The notes under the pieces are model-generated. The model was not told the DNA's origin and did not search any database. It was given only the letters and a program-made list of their open reading frames with translations. The translations under genes and the position numbers were made by a program. Of a stretch of 14,524 nucleotides of DNA, positions 1 to 14,524 are shown one piece after another. Position 1 is the stretch's first letter. Every line of letters starts with the position of its first letter. The stretch comes from a virus (Duplodnaviria > Heunggongvirae > Uroviricota > Caudoviricetes), in IMG/VR virus record IMGVR_UViG_2718218128_000007, positions 1-14,524 of that record; one strand, given 5' to 3'.

Positions 1-669
1 TTACGATGCCATCCCCTTTTTGGTTAAAGGTTTCGCAGGATTCCCAAACACAGTCACTCCAGCTGGCACACTTTTTGTAACGACGGCTCCCATTCCTATA
101 ACTGCCCCATCCCCAATGATAATTGGTCTTTTAGGAGAACCCTGTTTTATAACTGCACCCGCCCCAACATATACGTGATCACCAATAACAACGCTTCCAT
201 TACATTTAACACCCGGAGCGAAGGTAACATAGTCCCCTATAATGCAATCATGGGCAACATATGAATATATATTCGCATGGAAAAACTTACCTATTTTTGC
301 ATCCGCTGTGACACACGTAAAAGGGCATAGGATGGCACTATCATGAATATCACTAGATTCATATTGAATACTGTGATGTCCTTTAATGGTAAAGGGGACA
401 GCACCAGCCGCCATTAACATTGAGGCTATCCTTTCTCTAACTTTACTATCACCAATAGCGACATTAAAGAACTTGTTATCATAATCAGATTCACAGAACT
501 CCTGTGGAGATAGAACATCAATTCCAGAAATTTGCTTACTTTCAGAATTCTCAACAATAAATACTAATTTATAACTATCATGAAACGGTAGTTCATCGAA
601 CATGAACTGAACTAAAGGTGCAACTTCACGACCAAAACCACCTGCACCAACAATCCCATAGATATCCAT
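1..669 (-). CDS. NeuD/PglD-family hexapeptide-repeat (left-handed beta-helix) sugar O-acyltransferase; likely accessory/moron gene
   Basis: ORF 1..690 (-). N-terminal Rossmann-like segment MDIYGIVGAGGFGREV is followed by repeated hexapeptide-like [LIV]-G-x-x-x-x units (IGDYVTFAPGVKCNGSVVIGDHVYVGAGAVI ... IGDGAVIGMGAVV). The track start at 690 is a TTG; I prefer the in-frame ATG at 669, which has a GAGGG Shine-Dalgarno a few nt upstream. Stop codon is at 1..3, so the gene is complete. Confidence 0.7.
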   Translation of the reverse strand: MDIYGIVGAGGFGREVAPLVQFMFDELPFHDSYKLVFIVENSESKQISGIDVLSPQEFCESDYDNKFFNVAIGDSKVRERIASMLMAAGAVPFTIKGHHSIQYESSDIHDSAILCPFTCVTADAKIGKFFHANIYSYVAHDCIIGDYVTFAPGVKCNGSVVIGDHVYVGAGAVIKQGSPKRPIIIGDGAVIGMGAVVTKSVPAGVTVFGNPAKPLTKKGMAS

Positions 670-904
670 AACACCCTCAGACATTATCAATTTTAGATAT
701 AGTATGTCCTTGGCGTAGATTTCTCAAGAGTGTAAACAAGGGGGGAGACTTATGCTGGAAACTTGGGAAAAAGCGACTGTTATTTTGTTCAGTAAACACC
801 ATGTAAACTCACTGCCAACTGGCAACCATTCAATACTCACACCATCGAACGGACTTCAACTGACCGCGACCTGTTTCTTCATTCTCGGATAGCGGCATTC
901 ATCT

Positions 905-1492
905 TTATGCTGGTTTTGCTGGCCAAGTGATGTCAGGTGCTTTCGATGTATCGACCTCCTGAAGTGCTTTAATGTACCAAATCCACGCAATCAGACTCGT
1001 CTTATCTTCGTCGCTAATGATTCCCAATTGCAGTTCAGTTGTCCAGAAACTGATCTTTTCCTTAGCTTTTACCAATAGAATAGCTTTTTGCTTATCAGCC
1101 ACTTCAACATCAGCTGCATACTTAGCATTTGGGTCTGATACCCACTTTTTCCCATCCCATTTCTGGAACGGATCAGAAGGAGCAATATTGGTATAGCCAT
1201 TATTAATAGGACCAATATAGTCGATAGTATGAGGCATACCGTCAGTAGTTGAATAAACTGTCTTACCTCGATGGTCTTCTTTCAAGACCCATCCTCCATT
1301 TTCGAATACAGCAACCTTTCCTGTTAGTTCATTACCCGGATCAATATCGGTAGAATTACCCGGCATACTGACGCCAATATTAATATATTCGTCTGACCAT
1401 CCTATATATTCAAAAGTTACTATATCGTAGTAATAGCAGCGGATTTCACCCGGTTCCGTTGCCAGTCCATTTTCATCAAAAACAGGTTTCAT
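905..1492 (-). CDS. tfa: phage tail fiber assembly protein (Tfa chaperone)
   Basis: 195-aa ORF with blocks typical of enterobacterial Tfa proteins (EDHRGKTVY, QKWDGKKWV, C-terminal VDTSKAPDITWPAKPA). Its ATG overlaps the stop of the upstream tail fiber ORF (TAATG on the minus strand), implying translational coupling. Confidence 0.8.
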   Translation of the reverse strand: MKPVFDENGLATEPGEIRCYYYDIVTFEYIGWSDEYINIGVSMPGNSTDIDPGNELTGKVAVFENGGWVLKEDHRGKTVYSTTDGMPHTIDYIGPINNGYTNIAPSDPFQKWDGKKWVSDPNAKYAADVEVADKQKAILLVKAKEKISFWTTELQLGIISDEDKTSLIAWIWYIKALQEVDTSKAPDITWPAKPA

Positions 1493-2250
1493 TATTTAGC
1501 CCTTACTAAAAAGTTAAATGTGATATTGCGGGGACGTGTTTCGTTGCCTCCAGGATTTTGGAATGCAGGTAAAGCTCCCCCTATCGGCTGACTGATTCCG
1601 TTGGTATATAAAGGAGCTGCATTCGATATTGTACCAAACACTACATTGCTACCATTTCCGCTTGTCCCTAAAAATTTATGCTCATGCATTTTGAAGTCAT
1701 CTGCTTGTGCAGAAAGTAAGGTTCGCCCTCTATCCACCCCGCGCCCATCATCCCAGATACGAATAAAATCACCCCGTGCGTCAGGTAATGCTAGCGCCGG
1801 AAACACTTTCGCCAGCACAGGGTAATCAGTGGCAGAGAATTTCGCGCCGTTGAACTTCAAAAACACCATACTGGACCAACTGTCGATTACAGTATTTGGC
1901 ATTGCGGCGGACGGCCAGAAGAACGGAACGCCAATAGCTGGAGCACCTTCTCCCAAACCAAGATTTTCGAGAGCCGTTTTCACCGTGCCATCCGATTTGA
2001 TATCACCAAACGGATTCTTGCGGCTTAACAGCAGAGCACGAAGCGCGGTAAGCAACTGGTCGTTTCGCCCCTTCTCCAGGCTGGCACCGGATGCCTCCAC
2101 CACGCTGCAGAGTTCTTCCTGCAACATATCAAAGTAGTCATCATCCAGATCGGTGGCAGGTGTGCCAGTCTGGGGGTTACCACGGGTAAAACCGTTCTTA
2201 CCCGCGCCGAACTTATCCTTCTGCGCGGTTTTCGTGTCTATACGATGCAT
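1492..2250 (-). CDS. phage tail fiber protein (distal receptor-binding type), possibly a truncated remnant
   Basis: 252-aa ORF immediately upstream of and coupled to tfa; Gly/Asn/Ser-rich C-terminal half ending [11 protein letters not shown], as in Stf-like fibers. It is short for a lambdoid side tail fiber and is preceded by an in-frame TAA that separates it from the terminase-like ORF. Confidence 0.55.
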
Positions 2251-2253
2251 GGA

Positions 2254-2874
2254 TTACTCCGGATATTTAAAAATTACGTAGGTATGCGACGGGCAGAGTT
2301 TGTTAAGCACACATTCGACAACGGTGTCGCCCCAGATACGCAGCGCGGAATCACAGGGATCGCCACATGTCATCCAGGTGGTGTTTGTGGCGGCTGGCAT
2401 GTTGACCTGCCAGTAATACCGCCATTCCGGCGCATTCACCGCGTCAGAACAGGCCGATGAGCAGGTGAACGTGCTTTTGTCGTATCGCGTGATGGTAGCC
2501 TCCTGTTCTTTTTTGGCGGTCAGCTCCGGATTTTTGACCATACCGCCCATTGCACCGGTGATGGTGTTGCCCTGTCTGGCAATATTTTTCACGGCACGTC
2601 GCCAGAACTCGTAGGCCACGCACCACCGCTCAAGCACCGCGAGGTCAGTCACGCACAGCAGGCCCTGACCGCAGAGTTCTTTGGTTGTCAGTTGCCACAT
2701 GATCGTAGCGAGAGGGAGATCTTCTTCAGCGAACCACTCCGGTGGCTCAACACCTTTGATGGGCGTAAAAACAGGTTCATCTTTGTTCAGGGCTCGCTTG
2801 CCGGGGTTTCCGGCCAGCGCCTTGCGCGCCGTTGGCTTGGGGCGACGCCCGGAACGCCCCGCCGTTCCAGCCAT
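2254..2874 (-). CDS. terminase small subunit, P27 family (N-terminal about 135 aa), with an atypical Cys/Trp-rich C-terminal tail; probable deletion remnant
   Basis: N-terminus [36 protein letters not shown] matches the conserved P27-family TerS start. The track start at 2883 is GTG; an ATG at 2874 is preceded by an AGGAG Shine-Dalgarno. The last about 70 aa ([40 protein letters not shown]...) do not resemble a TerS C-terminus. Confidence 0.55.
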
Positions 2875-2913
2875 ATGCGGCACTCCTGGTTAAATTTCAT
2901 TTTTCGCGGGTAT

Positions 2914-2972
2914 AAAAAAACGATGGGGCGGGCAGTCCTGAAGGCGTCAGGTCACAGGGATTTGACCCGCCC
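2914..2972 (-). other. GC-rich nested inverted repeat between HNH and TerS genes; candidate cos/packaging-site structure or intrinsic terminator
   Basis: GGGCGGG (2926..2932) pairs with CCCGCCC (2966..2972), enclosing an inner hairpin CCTGA-aggcg-TCAGG (2937..2951). On the minus strand the outer stem is followed after 5 nt by a T7 run (complement of A7 at 2914..2920). Confidence 0.3.
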
Positions 2973-2998
2973 TCCCCTCTGGCAGTGGAAACTGGTTC

Positions 2999-3349
2999 TT
3001 ACTTCAGCCGTTCACGGGCCGTCTTCGCCTTATGACACGGCCAGCACAGACTCTGCAGATTACAGTCGGCATCAGTGCCGCCATGCGCTTTAGGGATGAT
3101 GTGGTCAACGGTTTTCGCTTCACGCACCACACCGGCACGCAGACATAACTGACATAAACCTTTGTCACGTTTCAGCACACGCGCGCGGATAGCGTCCCAC
3201 TTCGAACCGTAGCCGCGCTGATGACGGGACTGGCCTGGCTTGTATTGCTTCCAGCCTTCGCTTTTGTGGCTTTCACAATAGCCTGACGAGTCAGTGGTGG
3301 TATGGCGGCAGCCGCGAACGCGGCAGGCTTTTGGGGTTCGTGGGGGCAT
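2999..3349 (-). CDS. HNH endonuclease (phage terminase-associated type)
   Basis: Cys-rich HNH signature CRVRGCRHTT...CESH ... VDHIIPKAHGGTDADCNLQSLCWPCHKAK. It sits directly upstream of TerS, the standard HNH-terS arrangement in cos-type phages. I prefer the ATG at 3349 (MPPRT..., GGAG Shine-Dalgarno) over the track start at 3418, because a terminator-like hairpin lies between the two. Confidence 0.75.
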   Translation of the reverse strand: MPPRTPKACRVRGCRHTTTDSSGYCESHKSEGWKQYKPGQSRHQRGYGSKWDAIRARVLKRDKGLCQLCLRAGVVREAKTVDHIIPKAHGGTDADCNLQSLCWPCHKAKTARERLK

Positions 3350-3360
3350 GCTGGCTCCAA

Positions 3361-3383
3361 TAAAAAGCCCCGCGACGCGAGGC
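3361..3383 (-). terminator. putative rho-independent terminator after the small membrane protein gene
   Basis: Minus-strand RNA GCCUCG-CGUCG-CGGGGC (6-bp stem including one G-U pair) followed by UUUUUAUU, about 30 nt after the stop at 3415. Confidence 0.4.
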
Positions 3384-3414
3384 TTAGACAGAAAAAACAC
3401 CGGATAAGATCTGG

Positions 3415-3618
3415 TCATTCTTCCTTTTTAATAATGACTTCTCGAGGGCGCAATTGTTGGATAGCACGACAAATACAATATGGAATAACTGCCCATGCTA
3501 CTCCCATTGCTGCACCTGCAGCCTGTTGTGGAGCACTCTGAGCACCGAAAACCCCGAGGATTCCTTCAATAAATCCAATAGCACTACACAAAAGACTGAT
3601 GACCCAGAGAATTTTCAT
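3415..3618 (-). CDS. small hydrophobic membrane protein (two predicted transmembrane segments), function unknown
   Basis: 67-aa ORF MKILWVISLLCSAIGFIEGILGVFGA...AMGVAWAVIPYCICRAI with a charged C-terminal tail. A strong AAGGAG Shine-Dalgarno lies about 9 nt upstream of the ATG, and the region is AT-rich. Confidence 0.45.
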   Translation of the reverse strand: MKILWVISLLCSAIGFIEGILGVFGAQSAPQQAAGAAMGVAWAVIPYCICRAIQQLRPREVIIKKEE

Positions 3619-3735
3619 AAACCTAAACTCCTTTTAAATAAACACTTTACTAGGATAATTCTCATAAAATGTTAGTAAAGTATTTTCAGGAAAATAGCGT
3701 ATCACTGCCTATTTTTGACACTGATGCTGGGATAA

Positions 3736-4110
3736 TTATTCCGGTCGCTGGAGTTGCTCATGATGATACAGAGCGAGAATCAGGTCATAAGACCCTTGCC
3801 TGTCTTTGTAACCAGTTTTATCAACCAATTCAGCTTTACTGATTCCGGGTAAATCAAGAATCAGATTCGCAACTTCAATTGCCCTTTGGTACAACTTACC
3901 GCCCTTTTTCTCCCCATGCAGTGGTTTTACATTCTTGAGGTAACCGCTATCCGCCAGGGCGAGAAATGTTGCCCTTGGGCATATCTTCTTTCTTGACGAT
4001 TCGCTTTCTGTAACCTCTGCGACAGCTGCATCCCATGCATCACGAGGAGGCATTGAGCTATCAGCAACCAAATGATAAGCGATTAAAGCGGCGCGCGCGT
4101 ATTGAGACAT
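3736..4110 (-). CDS. hypothetical protein (accessory gene downstream of Rz)
   Basis: ORF 3736..4161 (-). The track start is a GTG that overlaps the end of Rz; the in-frame ATG at 4110 (MSQYARAALIAYHL...) is more plausible. I recognise no family from the sequence. Confidence 0.4.
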   Translation of the reverse strand: MSQYARAALIAYHLVADSSMPPRDAWDAAVAEVTESESSRKKICPRATFLALADSGYLKNVKPLHGEKKGGKLYQRAIEVANLILDLPGISKAELVDKTGYKDRQGSYDLILALYHHEQLQRPE

Positions 4111-4148
4111 AATGCATCCATATACAAAAATCTCATGATAATACTTTT

Positions 4149-4592
4149 CTAATATGAACACTGTGATCTCACATACTCTTGCAGGCCATTCAATTGGTTA
4201 GTTATGGTTTCGATGCGCTCTCTGAGAACGAAATAATCTCGTTGAGCGGTGTCAGTAAGTCTGGGGCTGGAAGCATCATCCACGCCGGAGGCGGCGGTGG
4301 TTTTATGCATGTCCGGACAGACTGCTTTGACGTGCAGCCACTTACGACCAGCAGAAACATCAGCACGAAGACTTTCGATAGTCGCGTTAGCATCAGCAAG
4401 CTCCTTTGTATATCTGGCATCGAGTTCAGCTACATTACTTTGACGTTTCTGTATGTCAGCGATAATGGATGCGGCCTTATCGCGCTGCTTTTTGTAGGTG
4501 ATGGCGTTATCACGGTAATGATTAACCGCCCATGACAGGCAGACGATGATGCAGATAACCAGAACGGAGATAATCGCGGTGACTCTGCTCAT
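4149..4592 (-). CDS. Rz: Rz i-spanin (inner-membrane spanin), lambda-like
   Basis: 147 aa; N-terminus [34 protein letters not shown] is near-identical to lambda Rz as I recall it. Its start overlaps the R stop (ATGA), and it carries the embedded +1-frame Rz1. Confidence 0.9.
4202..4393 (-). CDS. Rz1: Rz1 o-spanin (outer-membrane lipoprotein) embedded out of frame within Rz
   Basis: ORF 4202..4420 (-) lies entirely inside Rz in another frame. It has a signal peptide plus lipobox ([20 protein letters not shown]) followed by TSKQSV...[10 protein letters not shown], matching the lambda Rz1 pattern. Start is placed at the ATG at 4393. Confidence 0.8.
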
Positions 4593-5065
4593 ACCTCAAT
4601 CTCTCTGACCGTTCCGCCTGCTTCTTTGAATTTTGCAATCAGGCTGTCAGTCTTATGCTCGAACTGACCATAACCAGCGCCAGGCAATGAGGCCCAGATA
4701 TTACTGCAACGGTCGATTGCCTGACGGATGTCACCGCGATCAATCATTAGTAAAGCGCCACGCTCCTTAATCTGCTGCAATGCAACAGCATCCTGGCTTT
4801 TAGGAGAGAAGTCTGTCAGCCCTAACTGCTTGCGGTAAGCATCCCACCAGCGTGAAAGAAGTTGATAACGGCCTGCGGCTGTTGATTTGAGTTTCGGGTT
4901 TAGCGTGACAAGTTTTCGAGGGTGATCGGAGTAATCAGTGAAGAGTTCGCCACCGACAATAACGTCATAACCGTGGTTACGTGTCGGTTGTCGCCCGTTA
5001 TCCGTTCCTTCTGACCAGGCCACCATATCAAGGAAAGCTTTACGCTGAGGATTTAGTACCTGCAT
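4589..5065 (-). CDS. R: endolysin R, lambda-type lytic transglycosylase
   Basis: 158 aa, [45 protein letters not shown]..., near-identical to lambda R as I recall it. AAGGAG Shine-Dalgarno upstream of the ATG. Confidence 0.9.
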
Positions 5066-5670: not shown

Positions 5671-6417
5671 ATGCGACATAATTTTTCTAAAGACACTATA
5701 AAAAAATTAGCAGAGCGGGCAGCATTCATTTGTTCAAACCCTTCATGCCCTAGATTGACCATTGGCCCATCAATTGATGGCAATAAATCAATCAAGACAG
5801 GAGTTGCTGCTCACATATGTGCAGCATCTCCTGATGGCCCACGCTATGACATGTCACAATCAGAAACAGAAAGGAAGTCAATTAACAATGGCATATGGCT
5901 GTGTGCTACTTGTTCTGTATTAATAGATAAGAATCAGGGGCTAGACTATCCGGCACCTGTATTAAGAAAATGGAAAAAAGATCATGAAAGCCTTATAAGC
6001 TCCTGTCTTGAAGGTTCGATTAATATTACCTTCGATGCTTTGAAATATATTCAACAGCATGATGAAAGAAATCTGGCAAAAAAGATTATAAATGAATTGG
6101 ATGATAAAGGGGCTTTGTTCGTAGAATATCATCTTGAAAACCCCTGTTTTGTTGCCGAATCACTCAAAGAGTTAAGAACATGTTTGACCTCTTTGCTTTC
6201 TCAAATCCCAGATGAATCACCTCTATTTATCGTTTGCAAGTCAATTCGAGAAGCATGCCGTTATTATATGAACAACACTTCTAAAGACGCAGGGATTAAA
6301 GAGTTAGAATTTTCGTTGGGAGCGGTCAGAAAAATCGTAGGTATCAACGTTAAAAGAATATCAGAAACCTACGGGGTTAAACCTAGCCCACAATTATCTA
6401 CCATAATGCCAGATTAA
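5671..6417 (+). CDS. AT-rich moron encoding a 248-aa protein with an N-terminal HNH-like (His-Me finger type) Cys/His motif and an uncharacterised C-terminal domain
   Basis: Long ORF on the strand opposite to all flanking genes. Motif: CSNPSCPRLT ... GVAAHICAASPDGPRY ... ERKSINNGIWLCATCSVLIDKN, i.e. CxxxxC ... AHI ... N ... CxxC, with Ser where the final His is usual. Sampled 60-nt stretches are roughly one-third GC, against roughly half or more in neighbouring genes. A terminator follows it. Confidence 0.65.
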   Translation: MRHNFSKDTIKKLAERAAFICSNPSCPRLTIGPSIDGNKSIKTGVAAHICAASPDGPRYDMSQSETERKSINNGIWLCATCSVLIDKNQGLDYPAPVLRKWKKDHESLISSCLEGSINITFDALKYIQQHDERNLAKKIINELDDKGALFVEYHLENPCFVAESLKELRTCLTSLLSQIPDESPLFIVCKSIREACRYYMNNTSKDAGIKELEFSLGAVRKIVGINVKRISETYGVKPSPQLSTIMPD

Positions 6418-8896: not shown

Positions 8897-9090
8897 TGAA
8901 CAACTTAATGACAACTAAACAAGTCGCCGACTTCTGTGGCGTTTCAGTATCGACCGTTCTTCGCTGGAACAGCGTAAACAGGAGAACTGGCCAGAAATAC
9001 AGGCCTGACTTTCCAGATCCTGATATTAAATCCTGCCCAAATAAATGGGCATCACGCAAGATATACAGGTTTGCTGGAGTTATTGAGTGA
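8896..9090 (+). CDS. AlpA/excisionase-like small HTH DNA-binding protein
   Basis: 64 aa; LMTTKQVADFCGVSVSTVLRWNSVNRR fits the Xis/AlpA-family HTH pattern (T-x-K-Q/E-V-A ... G-V-S ... T-V-x-R-W). GGAGGTG Shine-Dalgarno; translationally coupled to the DUF551 gene. Confidence 0.55.
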   Translation: MNNLMTTKQVADFCGVSVSTVLRWNSVNRRTGQKYRPDFPDPDIKSCPNKWASRKIYRFAGVIE

Positions 9091-9292: not shown

Positions 9293-12200
9293 TCACACGC
9301 TGCGCCTTCGAGAATATTCATTTAATCGCTGATAACGAACATCTTGCTCCAGTTGTGGAGCAGCTTGAACAATTTGAAGCAAGCATTGCCCCAACTCTCG
9401 AGGCCCCCAGTGTTGGTCGGCAATCACGGCATTCAGCAGGGATAGAGCGTCCGCAGGATATCGGCTGCAAATATCTGATTTTAGCAAAAGGCGAACGTCG
9501 TAGCTAAGGTGTTCGAGCGGTTGCAGCCAGTCCTGCACCACTGCCAAAGCCGCCGGAAATTCACCTCGGGCAGCAATCACCATACGAGTCAACGATTCGG
9601 ATATGCGTGGGGTGGCCAAGTTGCGGGACTTTGGCCAAACCTGTTGCCAAAATGGCTGGACACGATTTTTCCAATACTCCTCGCGCTGATCGCCCGCACC
9701 TTCAAGTGCCTGGTATAACGCCTGCGCGGCTACCTCCAGACCTTCTTGTGGAAGAGCACTAATTGCCGTTCGGAACTCCTCCACGGTATATCCCTCGGTA
9801 GGGCCCAGAGCTGCATAAGTCAGGAAAGTAGCGAATTGCTGCCGGTGCTCGCCAAGATCAGAATAGTGATTGGCGCTCTCCAAAAAATCTGACTTGAAAG
9901 CTATCAGCAACGGTTCATACAGGCGTGGCGACCAGAGGAAGCCTTCCCACACAGCTTGTGCTTCGACGGGATTACTCCAAGCAAACAAGGGCAATAGATA
10001 CTGTTCGGTCCAAGGTCGATCTACGCGAAAAAATGCGATCAGCCGCGACCCCAGCAACACCCGACCATGGCGGAATAGCTCTATCTGTACATTACACAAT
10101 TTGGTGAAAAGTGTTTTCAATTCAACAGGAAGCAAATCATTGTCATTCGGGTTCTGTTTGAACCATAGGGTGATCAGTGATTGCGTGACATGCCCAATGG
10201 GATGATTGATCGCCGTAGAAACAGGATCATAGGTCTCAATTCCGTTTCGAATGGTGCTAGACTCTGGGCTTGTTTCTATCATCAGAACCCGACGACAAAG
10301 GGCCAGTAGAATCTCCTCGTGGCAGAGGATGGGCTTCGAAGCCTCCTCCATCCACCAAGTGACAGCGTGGGAAATCTCCTGAAGTACTGCGTCAGGCATG
10401 TCAAGCACCAACGGTGCGGCGTACCGCCACGAACGCAAAATCATCCCTGGTTCAGCCCAAGTCTGCAGAGCTTCACGCCACCGACCAACAGGCCACACAT
10501 CATCTTGTGATAGTTTACGTAACGCATACAGACTGTGAAAAAAGCGCGTACGGCAAACATCACTCCAAGTGTCCTCATAGAAAGGCAGTCTTTCTGGCAT
10601 AGGCTTTGCGAGCCATTGCACTAATTCCTGCCACTTACGGGGCGCAATGTCGACATCTATACTCTCCTCGAAGCCTGGATCACCGGTTCCGCTCATCCAG
10701 TGAGAGAATTCATCACGCTCGTTGGTTGCCAGTTGCCATTTTGGGTATGCTGTGGATATTTCCGTCAAACGTGTAGCCGCAGACTCTCCCAAAACAAGGC
10801 CCGCTCCCCTGAGCTTCGCTAGACACAACCAGACGGAATGAGCCACCAAATAATGCCACCTGTCTGCTTCCAAATTATCCTCGTACATCTCGCGCGGAGG
10901 CCCTGCCAAGATAGCAGTTTCCAGACGCTCTTGTGCAATTCCTGTCAGATGTCGTCCCTGCAAAACAAACAGTCTGAATACCTCTCGCCCAGTATCCGTG
11001 GCCCACAACCACCATGAACCGTCCTCTAACAACCAATTAACCCACCGCTCAGGTGGTATGCAGTTGTCTTGGCTTGCGGAAAACAGTGCCAGACGTTTGA
11101 AGGTGGGATATGGCAACTCAAACCAATTCTGAGCAATGCGCGTGGCCTGATCGCTGTCTTTGGCTCGAACGGCTAACCATGAATCCCGAAGTAATTCAAT
11201 CAGGCTCACCCAATCGCGGAACCCCCGGTTCTGCCAGTGCGGAGTGATGGACGGCAAATCCCAATGCGAGCGGTCGTGACGATCGTCGGACTCTCCCAAC
11301 TCCCGCAACAAGTCCAGTGCATCACGCAACAACTGCTGAAAATCTTCCAACAGGTATGGCAAGGACGATTTCCATGACTCGTCAGCAAGGTCGAACAGGG
11401 TTGAACGTACGTAATCAGCAGTCAGCACCAGCTCCCAATCCACCAATTGCTTGATTCGCAAGGGCTCATCAGTGCTGCTCGAATCGTCTTCACTATAGCG
11501 AAACGGCCGCCTCAACATAACCTTGGGAGAAAGCAACTCGCGTAACTCCAAACGCAATGTAGTCGTCAAGCCTTCATTCTTTAAGCGGTTTTGCCAACGA
11601 TACAAATCCAGGTTCTGCAATGGCGATTTCACACGACCACTAAGCAGAAGCCGCCATAAAGTAGACATAGGTGGACCAGGAATAGCCAGGGGGGAATGCA
11701 AGAGAATTTCATCTAACTCAGAAGTCTTACGCTCCCGCATCAGTGCTGCTAAGCGATCTAGTTCGCTCTCAATCAGAAACATCCAACGGTCGTGTATTTG
11801 TCCGCCGCGTTCAGCAATCCATATGATCAACCTAGGGTCGCCCAGATAACGAACTAGCCAACGGGCTATATGGGACATTACGTCATCCCATTTGCTAGCA
11901 CTGACACATCCAGAAACCAGCGACATCTGCGGGGCTAGCTCATAGGGCGCAGGACGCTGAACCAGACTGAATCGGAGTTTCGGGTCAATTTCGACATGCG
12001 GAGATACACAAAAGCGTGGCAGATCGCTGTATTTAAATCGTTCGTCCGAGAAAGCTTTCAATAACCAATCCAGCGGCGGTGCAGGATTGAGTTCCGCAAA
12101 ACATTTTGCTGGTAAACCTGACTTATCAGATAAGGCCCACATCATCCGACCAACGAAATCGTCCTGCCGAGTGCTATCCTGCGGGCGGGCCAGAGCATGT

Positions 12201-13120
12201 TTGACGACAATGGCTTCTTTGCCTTGTATACCATCGCGATAAATATTTGCCCAAGCACGCAATGTATGGTGCATCGCTGAATGATCATTGGAGTCCGCCG
12301 GTACGGTGTAAAGGATGGGGGTGACCCCCTTGGCCTCCCACTCGATAGATTTCCGGTGCTCCTGCCCCGGCTCACATTCTCCTAGTGCCCATACTTGCGG
12401 CGTGACTTCACCGAGCCTCCGATCTGCTGCCAGTGCGTCCATCATATAGCGTAGCACCGGGTCGTTGATGCTGTAGCCCACGAAGCAGACCACGTAGTTA
12501 CGGAACAAGTCACTTACAAAACGGGCAGCCCAGCGTTCCGTGAGATAGGCTAAGCCAAAGTCTCCACTAGTGACAACCAGACGATTCAGAGCAGTATCGT
12601 CTGTCTTTTCCGGTAACAACCCATGCAGGTAGACTATTCCGTCCCAGCGACTATTTTTCGGAATTGGCAGCATCGGCGCTACATAAGCCTGAAACGCTTG
12701 GGCCGTGCGTTTAGCTGCCACATGAAATAAGCGGTCAAAGTTGGTAGTAACTAACCGAAGGGCACCATCGCGACTACGCGCCAAACGCAACAGCGCCATC
12801 TGAGTATCAGTTGCGCCTCTATAGTGAAGTTTTGGCTTAAGGGCTTGTTCCAGCGCGCGACGGACGGCTATACGCTGTCCCGGTAGGCGCCGTTCCAACA
12901 AATCCAATGTGGCGTCGAACTGACCGCGCTTGAAGGCCTCACACTCAATTTCTGAAAGTGTTGTTCCGTTCAACTGGTAAATCCGCTTTACCAATCCCTT
13001 GAAACCTGGCAAACCAGCAGGGTAGGAAATGCCTGCCCCGCAGAAGAACACCACGCGGCCTTCCTCGTGCGCCTGCAAAAGTTCATCCGGAATATCAGGG
13101 CCGTTGGTGATAAATTGCAT
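9293..13120 (-). CDS. large single-gene SIR2-domain protein (defence-associated sirtuin-like): N-terminal SIR2 NADase-type domain plus about 1000-aa Trp-rich helical C-terminal region; candidate anti-phage/abortive-infection effector
   Basis: 1275-aa uninterrupted ORF with a strong Shine-Dalgarno (AGGAGGAAAAGGA) before the ATG at 13120. N-terminal motifs of the prokaryotic SIR2 family: VVFFCGAGISYPAGLPGF (NAD-binding GAGIS-type), LVTTNFDRLF (Asn 127), IVYLHGLL (His 165, 38 residues after the Asn) and CFVGYSINDP. No Walker A/P-loop is visible. Located between the integrase and the xis-like gene. Confidence 0.8.
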   Translation of the reverse strand: MQFITNGPDIPDELLQAHEEGRVVFFCGAGISYPAGLPGFKGLVKRIYQLNGTTLSEIECEAFKRGQFDATLDLLERRLPGQRIAVRRALEQALKPKLHYRGATDTQMALLRLARSRDGALRLVTTNFDRLFHVAAKRTAQAFQAYVAPMLPIPKNSRWDGIVYLHGLLPEKTDDTALNRLVVTSGDFGLAYLTERWAARFVSDLFRNYVVCFVGYSINDPVLRYMMDALAADRRLGEVTPQVWALGECEPGQEHRKSIEWEAKGVTPILYTVPADSNDHSAMHHTLRAWANIYRDGIQGKEAIVVKHALARPQDSTRQDDFVGRMMWALSDKSGLPAKCFAELNPAPPLDWLLKAFSDERFKYSDLPRFCVSPHVEIDPKLRFSLVQRPAPYELAPQMSLVSGCVSASKWDDVMSHIARWLVRYLGDPRLIIWIAERGGQIHDRWMFLIESELDRLAALMRERKTSELDEILLHSPLAIPGPPMSTLWRLLLSGRVKSPLQNLDLYRWQNRLKNEGLTTTLRLELRELLSPKVMLRRPFRYSEDDSSSTDEPLRIKQLVDWELVLTADYVRSTLFDLADESWKSSLPYLLEDFQQLLRDALDLLRELGESDDRHDRSHWDLPSITPHWQNRGFRDWVSLIELLRDSWLAVRAKDSDQATRIAQNWFELPYPTFKRLALFSASQDNCIPPERWVNWLLEDGSWWLWATDTGREVFRLFVLQGRHLTGIAQERLETAILAGPPREMYEDNLEADRWHYLVAHSVWLCLAKLRGAGLVLGESAATRLTEISTAYPKWQLATNERDEFSHWMSGTGDPGFEESIDVDIAPRKWQELVQWLAKPMPERLPFYEDTWSDVCRTRFFHSLYALRKLSQDDVWPVGRWREALQTWAEPGMILRSWRYAAPLVLDMPDAVLQEISHAVTWWMEEASKPILCHEEILLALCRRVLMIETSPESSTIRNGIETYDPVSTAINHPIGHVTQSLITLWFKQNPNDNDLLPVELKTLFTKLCNVQIELFRHGRVLLGSRLIAFFRVDRPWTEQYLLPLFAWSNPVEAQAVWEGFLWSPRLYEPLLIAFKSDFLESANHYSDLGEHRQQFATFLTYAALGPTEGYTVEEFRTAISALPQEGLEVAAQALYQALEGAGDQREEYWKNRVQPFWQQVWPKSRNLATPRISESLTRMVIAARGEFPAALAVVQDWLQPLEHLSYDVRLLLKSDICSRYPADALSLLNAVIADQHWGPRELGQCLLQIVQAAPQLEQDVRYQRLNEYSRRRSV

Positions 13121-13306: not shown

Positions 13307-14524
13307 TCAGTTAGAGTCTGAGCAAGTAATTATCGATTCAATCCTCTCCCACCATGCCAAGTAAGCTTTACGCTGTTCTTCTAGATAATCGCTCTTATCA
13401 TAAACTTGCCATACCCCTGGCAGCTTATGACCAAGCATGATTTCTGCGATATGAGGCGCAGTAAGATCAGAAAAATTTGTTCGTGCTGTCCGTCTCAAGT
13501 CATGAAGAGACCAATGAGGGAATTGATACCCAAAACGCCGCCATGCGTATTGCATTAAATTGTAAGGTAGCGACTGCAAGGATGTCCGACCAACTGGTTC
13601 CCTGCTTCCTTCCTTAGTAAAAAGCATATCGGAACCGTTGTTCATAGAGATAACGTATTTTATAAGCTCTTCAACCGGTTCAATAATGGGCCGCTTTAGC
13701 GGTTCGTCTGTTATATCCCCTGTCTTATGTCGTTCTGGTGGTACAGTCCATATTTTATTAATGAAATCAAAATCGTCCACCTTGGCAGTAATTAGCTCTG
13801 AACTACGGCAACCAAAATGCAGCAATAGTTTAATGAAGGCCCGGTATTTAGGAACCATTCGAGAACCATCGATCGCAGCATAAAGGATTTTAATTTCATC
13901 ATGTGTCAGAAACCGTTTCTTCTGACCTTTACGGATATCCATATCTTTACCCGTGATATCCGACAGCGGGCGAGTTTCAATGAGCTTTCTCTTATACGCC
14001 CAGACATGGGCCTGCTTTGCGTTAATTAGCAATCGGTCTGCTATTGCTGGAGTCTTAGTGCTAAGAGGCTCCAGGACTTCTAACCAATCATGCAATGTAG
14101 CTGCATCGTGAGGGATATTCCCGATTTTAGAGAACAGGTGCAGCTCAAACGAGCGGAGTATCTGTTCAGAACCTTTTTTATTTTTTACACAATATGCTTC
14201 ATACCAAGCACGGATCACAGATTCTACCGTCATGGCTTCAGTAGCTTTACGTTTTTCTGCCAGCTTGACCAATCGTGGATTGCGGTTTGACTCGAGTTCA
14301 CCACGAAGACGGATAACTTCTTCTCTGGCCTCTTTTAGTCCAGTTGACGGGTAAGTTCCGATATCAAGACGCTCACCTTTCCCCGCCCACTGATAACGAT
14401 ATTGGAACACTACGCGACCTTTCGGTGATACTCTAACAGACAGACCATCACGATCGGATTTAACCAAAACCTTATCACGTTCCTTTCCAACGACTGAACG
14501 CAACCACGCATCAGACAGCGCCAT
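13307..14524 (-). CDS. int: tyrosine site-specific integrase (P4-like, with arm-type N-terminal domain)
   Basis: 405-aa ORF whose ATG is at the window edge (14522..14524). The N-terminus (MALSDAWLRSV...GLSVRVSPKGRVVFQYRYQWAGKGERLDIGTYP...LKEAREE) resembles P4-type integrase arm-binding domains. C-terminal catalytic-region motifs: HDLRRTARTNF and LGHKLPGVWQVYDKSDY (candidate tyrosine nucleophile). Confidence 0.85.
   Translation of the reverse strand: MALSDAWLRSVVGKERDKVLVKSDRDGLSVRVSPKGRVVFQYRYQWAGKGERLDIGTYPSTGLKEAREEVIRLRGELESNRNPRLVKLAEKRKATEAMTVESVIRAWYEAYCVKNKKGSEQILRSFELHLFSKIGNIPHDAATLHDWLEVLEPLSTKTPAIADRLLINAKQAHVWAYKRKLIETRPLSDITGKDMDIRKGQKKRFLTHDEIKILYAAIDGSRMVPKYRAFIKLLLHFGCRSSELITAKVDDFDFINKIWTVPPERHKTGDITDEPLKRPIIEPVEELIKYVISMNNGSDMLFTKEGSREPVGRTSLQSLPYNLMQYAWRRFGYQFPHWSLHDLRRTARTNFSDLTAPHIAEIMLGHKLPGVWQVYDKSDYLEEQRKAYLAWWERIESIITCSDSN

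Follow-up and report, generated by a model that had tools for sequence, protein, structure and literature searches.

The DNA analysed here, a stretch of 14,524 nucleotides from the virus record IMGVR_UViG_2718218128_000007 (the window), is a decayed Escherichia coli prophage with nearly all of its genes on the minus strand, and this work deals with the predicted N-acyltransferase (AT) gene located at its very edge (positions 1-669, minus strand, 222 aa; stop codon TAA at 3-1, ATG at 669-667). The AT gene is downstream of tfa, coding for a tail-fibre assembly protein (905-1492, minus strand, 195 aa; Caudo_TAP, PF02413, E 3.5e-28), from which a gap of 235 bp separates it, and tfa is in turn downstream of a tail-fibre gene (1492-2250, minus strand, 252 aa) whose product displays a weak Collar domain in Pfam. 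The prophage to which this tail-fibre protein belongs is of the SfV/e14 type, its baseplate being Mu-like; in intact copies the tail-fibre gene comes after gp46, baseplate J and gp48/YmfQ. The open reading frame (ORF) of AT is uninterrupted on the minus strand between position 690 and its stop codon (window 1-3), and RefSeq holds a coding sequence with the same coordinates and the start at ATG 669-667 (WP_032361631.1, 222 aa), annotated generically. Positions 1-669 are the likely gene, since the RefSeq start falls there, homologues align from residue 1-3, and a Shine-Dalgarno-like GAGGGTG read from the sequence (672-678, minus strand) stands 2 nt upstream of this start codon. Homologous cassettes have a purine-rich stretch at the equivalent spot.

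Both halves of the expected two-domain protein were recovered by Pfam, PglD_N with an E value of 3.9e-9 (37.4 bits; cut-off 23.4) and Hexapep with 3.9e-15 (55.2 bits). The NCBIfam model TIGR03570, which covers the NeuD/PglB/VioB family, was passed narrowly (165.1 bits vs. a cut-off of 160.8), whereas for the CysE, LacA, Maa and LpxA models AT stayed far below their cut-offs. Thus, the ORF, its position directly after the fibre and tfa genes and the two-domain call made in an earlier sequence-only reading of this DNA all held, and the profile search placed AT on the NeuD/PglD side and not with CysE/LacA. The closest solved relative was 4M9C (E 1.8e-71), which we take to be A. baumannii WeeI/QhbA (Morrison & Imperiali 2013), the search output having given a generic name only; in the tree, 4M9C clusters with Acinetobacter genes belonging to the cassette described below. 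It was followed by Pcryo_0637 (7L7Y; 2.8e-58) and VioB (7TXP; 6.4e-22) and then by the PglB acetyltransferase domain, PglD and PerB; AT residues 3-218 of 222 align to 4M9C and 7L7Y, nearly the full length. By these matches AT is a predicted two-domain class I nucleotide-sugar N-acyltransferase of the PglD/WeeI/VioB type, with a nucleotide-binding domain and a left-handed beta-helix, and its closest affinities, judged by similarity, are with the N-acyltransferases of 4-amino-4,6-dideoxy sugars (WeeI/QhbA, Pcryo_0637 and VioB). The sugar acyltransferase class proposed earlier stood, with the refinement that AT is closest to these enzymes and not to a sialic-acid or capsule O-acetyltransferase.

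The window ends at the AT stop codon, and 1 nt beyond it, outside the window, starts a gene for a MaoC-family protein of 141 aa (MaoC_dehydratas in Pfam, E 1.1e-26). This partner is a single hot-dog domain, with P. aeruginosa PhaJ1 (5CPG, E 3e-32) and A. caviae PhaJ (1IQ6, E 2.4e-25) as its closest solved relatives; its SGDHNPVH segment aligns to the PhaJ motif and keeps the hydratase Asp and His, presumably the counterparts of Asp31 and His36, which we take to be the catalytic residues of PhaJ. By sequence it is a PhaJ-like (R)-specific enoyl-CoA (coenzyme A) hydratase, and the two genes, 1 nt apart, are probably co-translated.

MaoC stands directly after AT in every member of the clade to which the window belongs (68-79% identity). 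In two of these members, one from Buttiauxella and one on an enterobacterial scaffold of metagenomic origin, the pair lies between fliC and fliA, with genes for a DegT aminotransferase and for a large protein of methyltransferase/TPR/GT41 make-up as neighbours, a locus that is a flagellin-glycosylation island. On a P22-like podophage contig, also of the window clade, AT-MaoC follows the tailspike gene directly; other scattered loci hold the pair at the same 68-79% identity, and at around 60% identity it is found beside a Pseudomonas O-antigen cluster. Among 80 species-level genomes most had AT alone, in the order PglC-like transferase, AT, PglE-like aminotransferase and PglF-like dehydratase, and MaoC was inserted directly after AT in seven of them. 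The neighbour-joining tree showed the window clade to be wholly MaoC-linked, a second MaoC-linked clade, and phage-borne copies at no fewer than six (>=6) separate places. Judged from these contexts, the AT-MaoC pair is a portable cassette, whose settings are flagellin-glycosylation islands, O-antigen clusters and sites adjoining tail-fibre or tailspike genes.

AT proteins followed by MaoC carried a C-terminal extension of about four residues (GMAS here, window 1-15), which was lacking in ~73 of 80 MaoC-free homologues. The extension overlaps the MaoC ribosome-binding region and, instead of being a functional tail, may have come about through translational coupling. A Hamiltonella defensa homologue of AT (61% identity) lies in a degraded polysaccharide locus with a short MaoC remnant downstream (L013 ~9032-9068), which suggests decay of the cassette in this symbiont.

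A sigma-70-like promoter candidate for the cassette was located at 699-727 on the minus strand (TTGAGA at 727-722, a 17-nt spacer and TACTAT at 704-699). The flagellar-island copy L006 has TTGAGT-17-TACTAT, hexamers and spacing being kept though overall DNA identity is ~74%; homology of the DNA to L006 spans the two genes plus ~40 bp upstream and stops at about window 711, within the promoter candidate. No minus-strand terminator-like site was found in the interval between tfa and AT, so that the late operon may also be read through into the cassette. The same interval holds a 46-codon plus-strand ORF (752-892), to which the sequence-only reading had drawn attention together with a G-rich Shine-Dalgarno sequence. 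The ORF is there, and so is the AAGGGGGGAG stretch upstream of it (738-747), but we judged it not to be a gene: it had no Pfam or NCBIfam match and no plus-strand promoter-like site upstream, and its exact peptide is absent from a collection of 15 billion proteins, though the surrounding DNA is present in many assemblies. Its DNA was confined to five cassette-carrying genomes among the 5426 complete E. coli genomes searched. A terminator-like hairpin at 893-912 was within chance expectation, and no Rfam structured-RNA match at E <= 1 was obtained in window 1-3000.

The AT-MaoC block occurred at this place in only five of the 5426 complete E. coli genomes (F8704-2, F1267, D9, D4 and OY754389), with the contiguous fibre-tfa-AT-MaoC block alike in all. 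Other E. coli prophages matched at >=85% only from about 1247-1362 onward, window 1-1247 being specific to the five carriers, and the tfa segment from 905 to ~1250 moves together with the cassette. The block was found in prophages at two chromosomal sites, prfC in F8704-2 and thrW in F1267 and the dog strains D9 and D4. What lies beyond it varied: at prfC (F8704-2), a 517-aa gene and then a DinI-like gene, the latter a type of phage cargo; at thrW, a class-3 lipase gene in F1267 or, in D9, a broken version of the 517-aa gene in two ORFs. The block was intact in four different deletion derivatives, the window included, the most reduced of which kept int-fibre-tfa-AT-MaoC and the downstream cargo genes, and both cassette ORFs were intact in every copy examined, heavily decayed prophages included. 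In a sister prophage whose baseplate, fibre and tfa genes follow one another in the same way, this slot holds a membrane Oac-type acyltransferase, a DinI-like gene and an integrase. Because of the two insertion sites, the intact deletion derivatives and the different acyltransferase in the sister prophage, AT sits inside the phage, at its variable cargo end. The alternative raised earlier, a chromosomal gene just beyond the prophage boundary, was rejected, as fibre and tfa accompany it in prophages at prfC and at thrW alike. The exact AT protein was indexed in 243 blocks of the protein collection, and the cluster listing counted 115 contigs.

The 517-aa gene beyond MaoC (L001, the F8704-2 locus, 17211-18764) accompanies the cassette in F8704-2 and in several further assemblies; RefSeq names it a sigma-70 family RNA polymerase sigma factor, yet neither Pfam nor PADLOC gave a match. 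Homology with the 474-aa gene occupying the position beyond MaoC in L006, which likewise lacks Pfam and PADLOC matches, was considered and rejected, as none was detected.

Related AT genes were present on seven other phage contigs (L011, L012, L014 and L020-L023), beside receptor-binding, lysis or integrase genes. Two of the seven carry the AT-MaoC pair, and the other five (L011, L012, L021, L022 and L023) have AT without MaoC. On one contig AT comes after fibre and tfa and before the integrase, on another AT and MaoC lie between the integrase and SGNH-type spike-like genes, and on a further one AT adjoins a DUF2793 fibre gene; some have AT next to Oac- or OafA-type O-acetyltransferases, endolysins or integrases, and in Acinetobacter phage TPWB-05 it is beside a 726-aa convergent gene. 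The tailspike of the P22-like contig gave no clue to the host, since its similarity to known phages is limited to the head-binding domain; E. coli is not the origin of this contig.

For the prediction of the sugar substrate, residues of AT were compared with those of characterised enzymes. We take 4M9C and the PglB domain to acylate the 4-amino group of a nucleoside diphosphate (NDP)-4-amino-4,6-dideoxyhexose. The same reaction is carried out by Pcryo_0637, VioB, PglD and PerB (PMC8040287, PMC9271549). In the alignment to Pcryo_0637, the catalytic His (in AHD), the Asn, the oxyanion Gly, the equivalent of Gln178 and the Asn-Pro turn were all conserved in AT; in Pcryo_0637 they correspond to the base His142, to Asn135, to the oxyanion Gly160 and to the C-terminal Asn212-Pro213 (PMC8040287, PMC9271549 for residue roles). 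The nucleotide site was different. The Asp-Asp pair binding uridine and ribose (Asp40-Asp41 in Pcryo_0637; Asp35/36 in PglD) was replaced by Val39-Glu40, and Ser11 by Gly. AT proteins adjoining PglE-like aminotransferases had Asp-Asp in 50 of 53 cases, and those linked only to DesI/VioA-like aminotransferases had Val, Ile, Ala or Thr followed by Glu in 11 of 11 (Fisher p = 5e-10, uncorrected for phylogeny). The window clade pairs with aminotransferases of the latter kind, and no PglF/PglE/PglC-type genes are near the E. coli copies; AT thus lacks both the Asp-Asp pair and the PglF/PglE/PglC association, traits of the acetyltransferases of the uridine diphosphate (UDP)-N,N'-diacetylbacillosamine (diNAcBac) type. 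In Buttiauxella, the aminotransferase adjoining the cassette resembles DesI (2PO3, 3e-67) and shares 62% full-length identity with the VioA of E. coli D9, compared with 28% for the Pseudomonas PglE-like enzyme. Because of the Val-Glu site and the native VioA/DesI-like aminotransferase partners, the predicted substrate of AT is deoxythymidine diphosphate (dTDP)-4-amino-4,6-dideoxy-D-glucose (dTDP-viosamine).

This prediction preceded the reading of the O-antigen loci of the hosts, all five of which turned out to have vioA-containing clusters. F8704-2 has the O39 cluster, rfbBDAC-vioA-acyltransferase-wzx-...-wzy-...-manCB. D9 and F1267 have rfbB-rfbA-wzx-vioA, a glycosyltransferase (GT) gene, wzy, two GT genes, glf and a last GT gene, and D4 and OY754389 carry this same cluster. 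It contains vioA but no acyltransferase between galF and gnd; a hexapeptide acyltransferase lies instead between wzzB and hisI and could be the VioB of the D9-type hosts. The candidate VioB proteins of the hosts are short hexapeptide acyltransferases without N-terminal domain, with only generic repeat similarity to the phage AT. Within the complete genomes, vioA-like DNA occurred in 171 of 5426, the D9-type cluster in seven (four with the cassette) and the O39 cluster in 15 (one with the cassette); no cassette was found elsewhere. The probability that three independent acquisitions should all fall in the 22 O39/D9-type genomes was ~6e-8 (hypergeometric test), and ~3e-5 for all falling in vioA-positive genomes. 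The two-site linkage, the Oac-type gene in the same slot of the sister prophage, the seven other phage contigs and the vioA hosts together lend comparative support to the earlier proposal of a possible surface-modifying moron placed after the fibre and tfa genes.

As to the serogroup of the D9-type hosts, the OgN31 cluster is described as having rmlBA-vioA, a wzx that hardly differs from the O116 one and a right half of its own, and OgN31 strains agglutinate with O39 antiserum (PMC4873512), and the O116 cluster is reported with gne (PMC7685785). The D9-type cluster has no gne and has glf, and its right half is distinct from that of 13 other genomes that match only the wzx-vioA part; for these reasons D9 and F1267 appear, from gene content and the published description, to carry the OgN31 cluster rather than that of O116. 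NCBIfam, hitting only generic Wzx/Wzy models, could not tell O116 from OgN31. D9 also carries near sbcB (L107 32407-33689) a prophage remnant with yfdG/yfdH, genes for gtrA/gtrB-type bactoprenol glucosyltransferase functions, plus a 496-aa gene, so that the strain has, as a second module for O-antigen modification, one of the classical type.

On this evidence, we give roughly even chances to the reading that the cassette is a lysogenic-conversion module, which would N-acylate dTDP-viosamine, probably with a 3-hydroxybutanoyl group, and so alter the O-antigen receptor. RmlA, RmlB and VioA of the host O-antigen cluster would provide dTDP-viosamine, and the hydratase would convert crotonyl-CoA or another short enoyl-CoA into the (R)-3-hydroxyacyl-CoA. 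The phage AT would then transfer the 3-hydroxyacyl group to the sugar's 4-amino group, in competition with the unrelated hexapeptide acetyltransferase of the host, and the O-antigen repeat would receive N-(3-hydroxybutanoyl)-viosamine in place of N-acetyl-viosamine; if the altered sugar were rejected by the host glycosyltransferase, O-antigen would be reduced instead. Either outcome would change the surface receptor and the serological epitope, and would hinder superinfection by phages that read the O-antigen, which probably serves this phage and its relatives as receptor. The sugar substrate, the acyl donor, the expression in the lysogen and the phenotype are the parts of this scheme that we infer. 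The 3-hydroxybutanoyl donor is suggested by the pairing with a PhaJ-type hydratase and by three published cases: for QhbA/WeeI, transfer of either acetyl or 3-hydroxybutyryl to a sugar of this kind has been predicted (PMC3628348), VioB and dedicated donor-supply genes lead to N-(3-hydroxybutanoyl)-viosamine on P. syringae flagellin (PMC3927599), and E. coli O49 and O123 contain 3-hydroxybutanoyl-viosamine derivatives, according to titles cited in PMC7685785.

A number of observations weigh against such a 3-hydroxyacylating conversion module. On the side of the enzyme, the solved VioB carries Asp-Asn at the nucleotide site where AT has Val-Glu (PMC9271549); the rule drawn from Val-Glu is an empirical correlation, broken by three PglE-linked AT proteins; and the comparison of MaoC-linked with MaoC-free AT proteins yielded no residue signature clearly mapping to a larger acyl pocket, the strongest signal being the C-terminal extension, with the change of Ala75 to Gly ranking 8th. 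As regards expression, the promoter candidate matches the consensus in 9 of 12 positions, and sites of this quality in the region are not above shuffled expectation. On the side of the hosts, 14 of the 15 O39-type and three of the seven D9-type genomes have no cassette, and the association, behind which stand about three independent lineages, may reflect phage host range only. In addition, vioA of F8704-2 is annotated as frameshifted (L106 6980-8091), being 1 bp shorter than in other O39 clusters, so that the substrate may be missing there or the assembly may be in error. As for the product, the E. coli O49 sugar is the (S)-isomer, as opposed to the (R) product of PhaJ-type enzymes, and glycosyltransferases can be strict on the N-acyl group, VioT being an example (PMC3927599).

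The readings that compete with it differ in how well they accommodate these facts. AT could be a plain N-acetyltransferase, using acetyl-CoA on a 4-amino sugar in the manner of WeeI, PglD and VioB and supplying or boosting viosamine N-acetylation, with the hydratase in an unrelated or accessory role; we regard this as rather unlikely. Two of the closest solved homologues, Pcryo_0637 and VioB, were assayed with that donor (PMC8040287, PMC9271549), which also counts against 3-hydroxyacylation; 4M9C (WeeI) was presumably characterised with acetyl-CoA too. The five phage contigs having AT without MaoC fit simple acetylation, as does the vioA-containing D9/F1267 cluster, where such a supply could matter, with no acyltransferase gene from galF to gnd, as described for OgN31 (PMC4873512). 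Yet the D9-type hosts may have a VioB of their own in the hexapeptide acyltransferase encoded next to wzzB, and the 1-nt AT-MaoC pairing holds throughout the window clade and turns up again in another clade as well as in lineages scattered over the tree, in three kinds of glycan loci, a recurrence hard to explain without functional coupling.

That the cassette is a functionless passenger, a fragment of a flagellin island or O-antigen cluster captured beside tfa by illegitimate recombination and intact only as it is recent, seems improbable to us. Such a capture would agree with the limits of homology to the flagellar-island copy (two genes and ~40 bp), with the low G+C content of the cassette (~0.39-0.41) compared with the phage, with the lack of glycosylation genes between fliC and fliA in E. 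coli, and with the >=99% identity among all E. coli copies, because of which purifying selection is not measurable. It sits badly, however, with ORFs that stay intact even in prophages stripped of nearly all else, with the 243 blocks and 115 contigs counted for the exact AT protein, with carriers restricted to hosts making the predicted substrate and with the independent gain of related genes at the equivalent position by unrelated phages. Still harder to credit is a NeuD-like O-acetyltransferase, or an enzyme with another acceptor such as sialic acid, capsule, the dTDP-Fuc4N of the enterobacterial common antigen (ECA), UDP-Ara4N or a phage structural protein. The NCBIfam family name includes NeuD and some homologues are labelled as sialic acid O-acetyltransferases; moreover, every Enterobacterales cell makes dTDP-Fuc4N, whose ubiquity would account for the wide host spread of the cassette. 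Against this, the match to 4M9C and the amine-deprotonating His and Asn point to an amino-sugar N-acyltransferase, and some 100 genomic contexts show DegT-type aminotransferases and never sialic-acid (neu) genes, so that in its neighbourhood, the level at which the two were compared, AT is set apart from NeuD, which is encoded within neu biosynthesis loci. To our knowledge, every class I enzyme so far characterised acts on a 4-amine that is equatorial, and that of Fuc4N is axial; restriction to vioA hosts would also be unexpected if ECA were the target.

The remainder of the window is that of a prophage which has lost its particle genes. Over the comparable stretch (window 1-4760) it shares 99.9-100% identity with the F8704-2 prophage (host E. 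coli O39:NM), with respect to which it has a 16.2-kb deletion of head and tail genes and no IS3 copy. The deletion joined L001 22508 to 38727, with 10 bp common at the junction, and created a fusion ORF (2254-2883, minus strand, 209 aa) of the 5' part of the small terminase subunit gene and the 3' part of gp48/ymfQ. As all head and tail genes are affected, the window prophage is defective, though its fibre-tfa-cassette end was kept. The site of the IS3-family insertion of F8704-2 (L001 39650-40959) corresponds to window 3420-3422, with 3 bp of overlap at the junction.

At the opposite end, the integrase gene (13307-14524) adjoins a gene for the defence sirtuin Dsr1 (9293-13120, minus strand, 1275 aa, SIR2 domain), matched by PADLOC over its full length with 2711 bits. 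Also encoded are regulators of the CII-like and Q types, a lysis cassette and an HNH endonuclease. Between the lysis genes and the Q antiterminator, in an island of low G+C (0.36-0.41), lies a 248-aa ORF on the opposite, plus strand (5671-6417); Pfam found nothing in it, but over the first 130 residues it resembles the PADLOC candidate PDC-M68A (E 7.5e-27) as well as models of HNH-type endonuclease effectors, and it may be a second defence moron. AT and MaoC themselves gave no PADLOC match to known anti-phage defence systems.

Compared with known enzymes, AT shares the two-domain fold family and the catalytic residues of WeeI/QhbA (4M9C) and Pcryo_0637 (7L7Y/7L7Z), N-acyltransferases of UDP-2-acetamido-4-amino-2,4,6-trideoxyglucose, and differs from them in having Val-Glu for Asp-Asp, Gly for Ser11, a VioA/DesI-like partner instead of PglE/PglF/PglC, carriage by a phage, and the hydratase pairing. 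VioB, from A. baumannii (7TXP) and from the P. syringae flagellin island, is of the same class I family with the same predicted substrate, and the P. syringae product is the one proposed here; the match to 7TXP is, however, much weaker (E 6.4e-22), and in P. syringae the donor is supplied via ketoacyl-acyl carrier protein synthase III (KAS III), an acyl carrier protein (ACP) and a reductase, not a PhaJ-type hydratase. The Bacillus anthrose operon, in which the enoyl-CoA hydratase AntA and the N-acyltransferase AntD place a 3-hydroxyacyl group on dTDP-4-amino-4,6-dideoxyglucose, follows by its general description the same hydratase-acyltransferase logic, but it is chromosomal, serves a spore glycan and includes an aminotransferase and a glycosyltransferase of its own.

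Among phage systems, P22 has gtrABC and Sf6 has oac after the tailspike gene, and the Sf6 Oac, SfV/P22 gtrABC and OafA/GtrC-type systems occupy the same slot as the cassette, between the receptor-binding genes and the attachment site. They act at the membrane on the finished or lipid-linked O-unit, by O-acetylation or glucosylation, whereas the cassette encodes soluble cytoplasmic enzymes for which exchange of the N-acyl group on the nucleotide-sugar precursor is predicted. NeuO of the K1 prophage CUS-3, a hexapeptide acetyltransferase encoded next to the tailspike gene that O-acetylates polysialic acid, is likewise a cytoplasmic prophage enzyme altering a surface polysaccharide, of a family and chemistry different from those of AT. 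A precedent for such a change through cytoplasmic enzymes is given by the A. baumannii prophage proteins EpaA/EpaB, which reroute pseudaminic-acid synthesis (PMC13228068); they belong to another enzyme family and work by epimerisation of a nonulosonic acid. Literature searches on hydratases with 3-hydroxybutanoyl glycans, on prophages with viosamine and on anthrose returned nothing relevant, and neither the cassette, nor its movement among flagellar, O-antigen and phage loci, nor the restriction to viosamine hosts, nor N-acyl editing was found described in the literature searched.

More tentatively than for the module itself, and with the odds leaning against it, we propose that temperate phages use this AT and PhaJ-type hydratase cassette for seroconversion at the level of the cytoplasmic precursor, exchanging acetyl for 3-hydroxybutanoyl on dTDP-viosamine, and that the cassette shuttles among flagellin islands, O-antigen loci and the conversion slots of unrelated phages. 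The hypothesis predicts an increase of 44 Da per repeat unit and altered phage adsorption, and sequenced strains with and without the prophage exist. Seroconversion by phages is known as membrane O-acetylation, glucosylation and polymerase swapping; rewriting of the N-acyl group on the precursor, if true, would be a new biochemical route. It could then account for N-acyl heterogeneity and for serological cross-reactions at odds with the O-antigen cluster, such as that between O39 antiserum and OgN31 (PMC4873512), and O-typing from the DNA of the rfb locus only could miss determinants encoded by phages. One mobile module would in this way link flagellin glycans, O-antigens and phage receptors.

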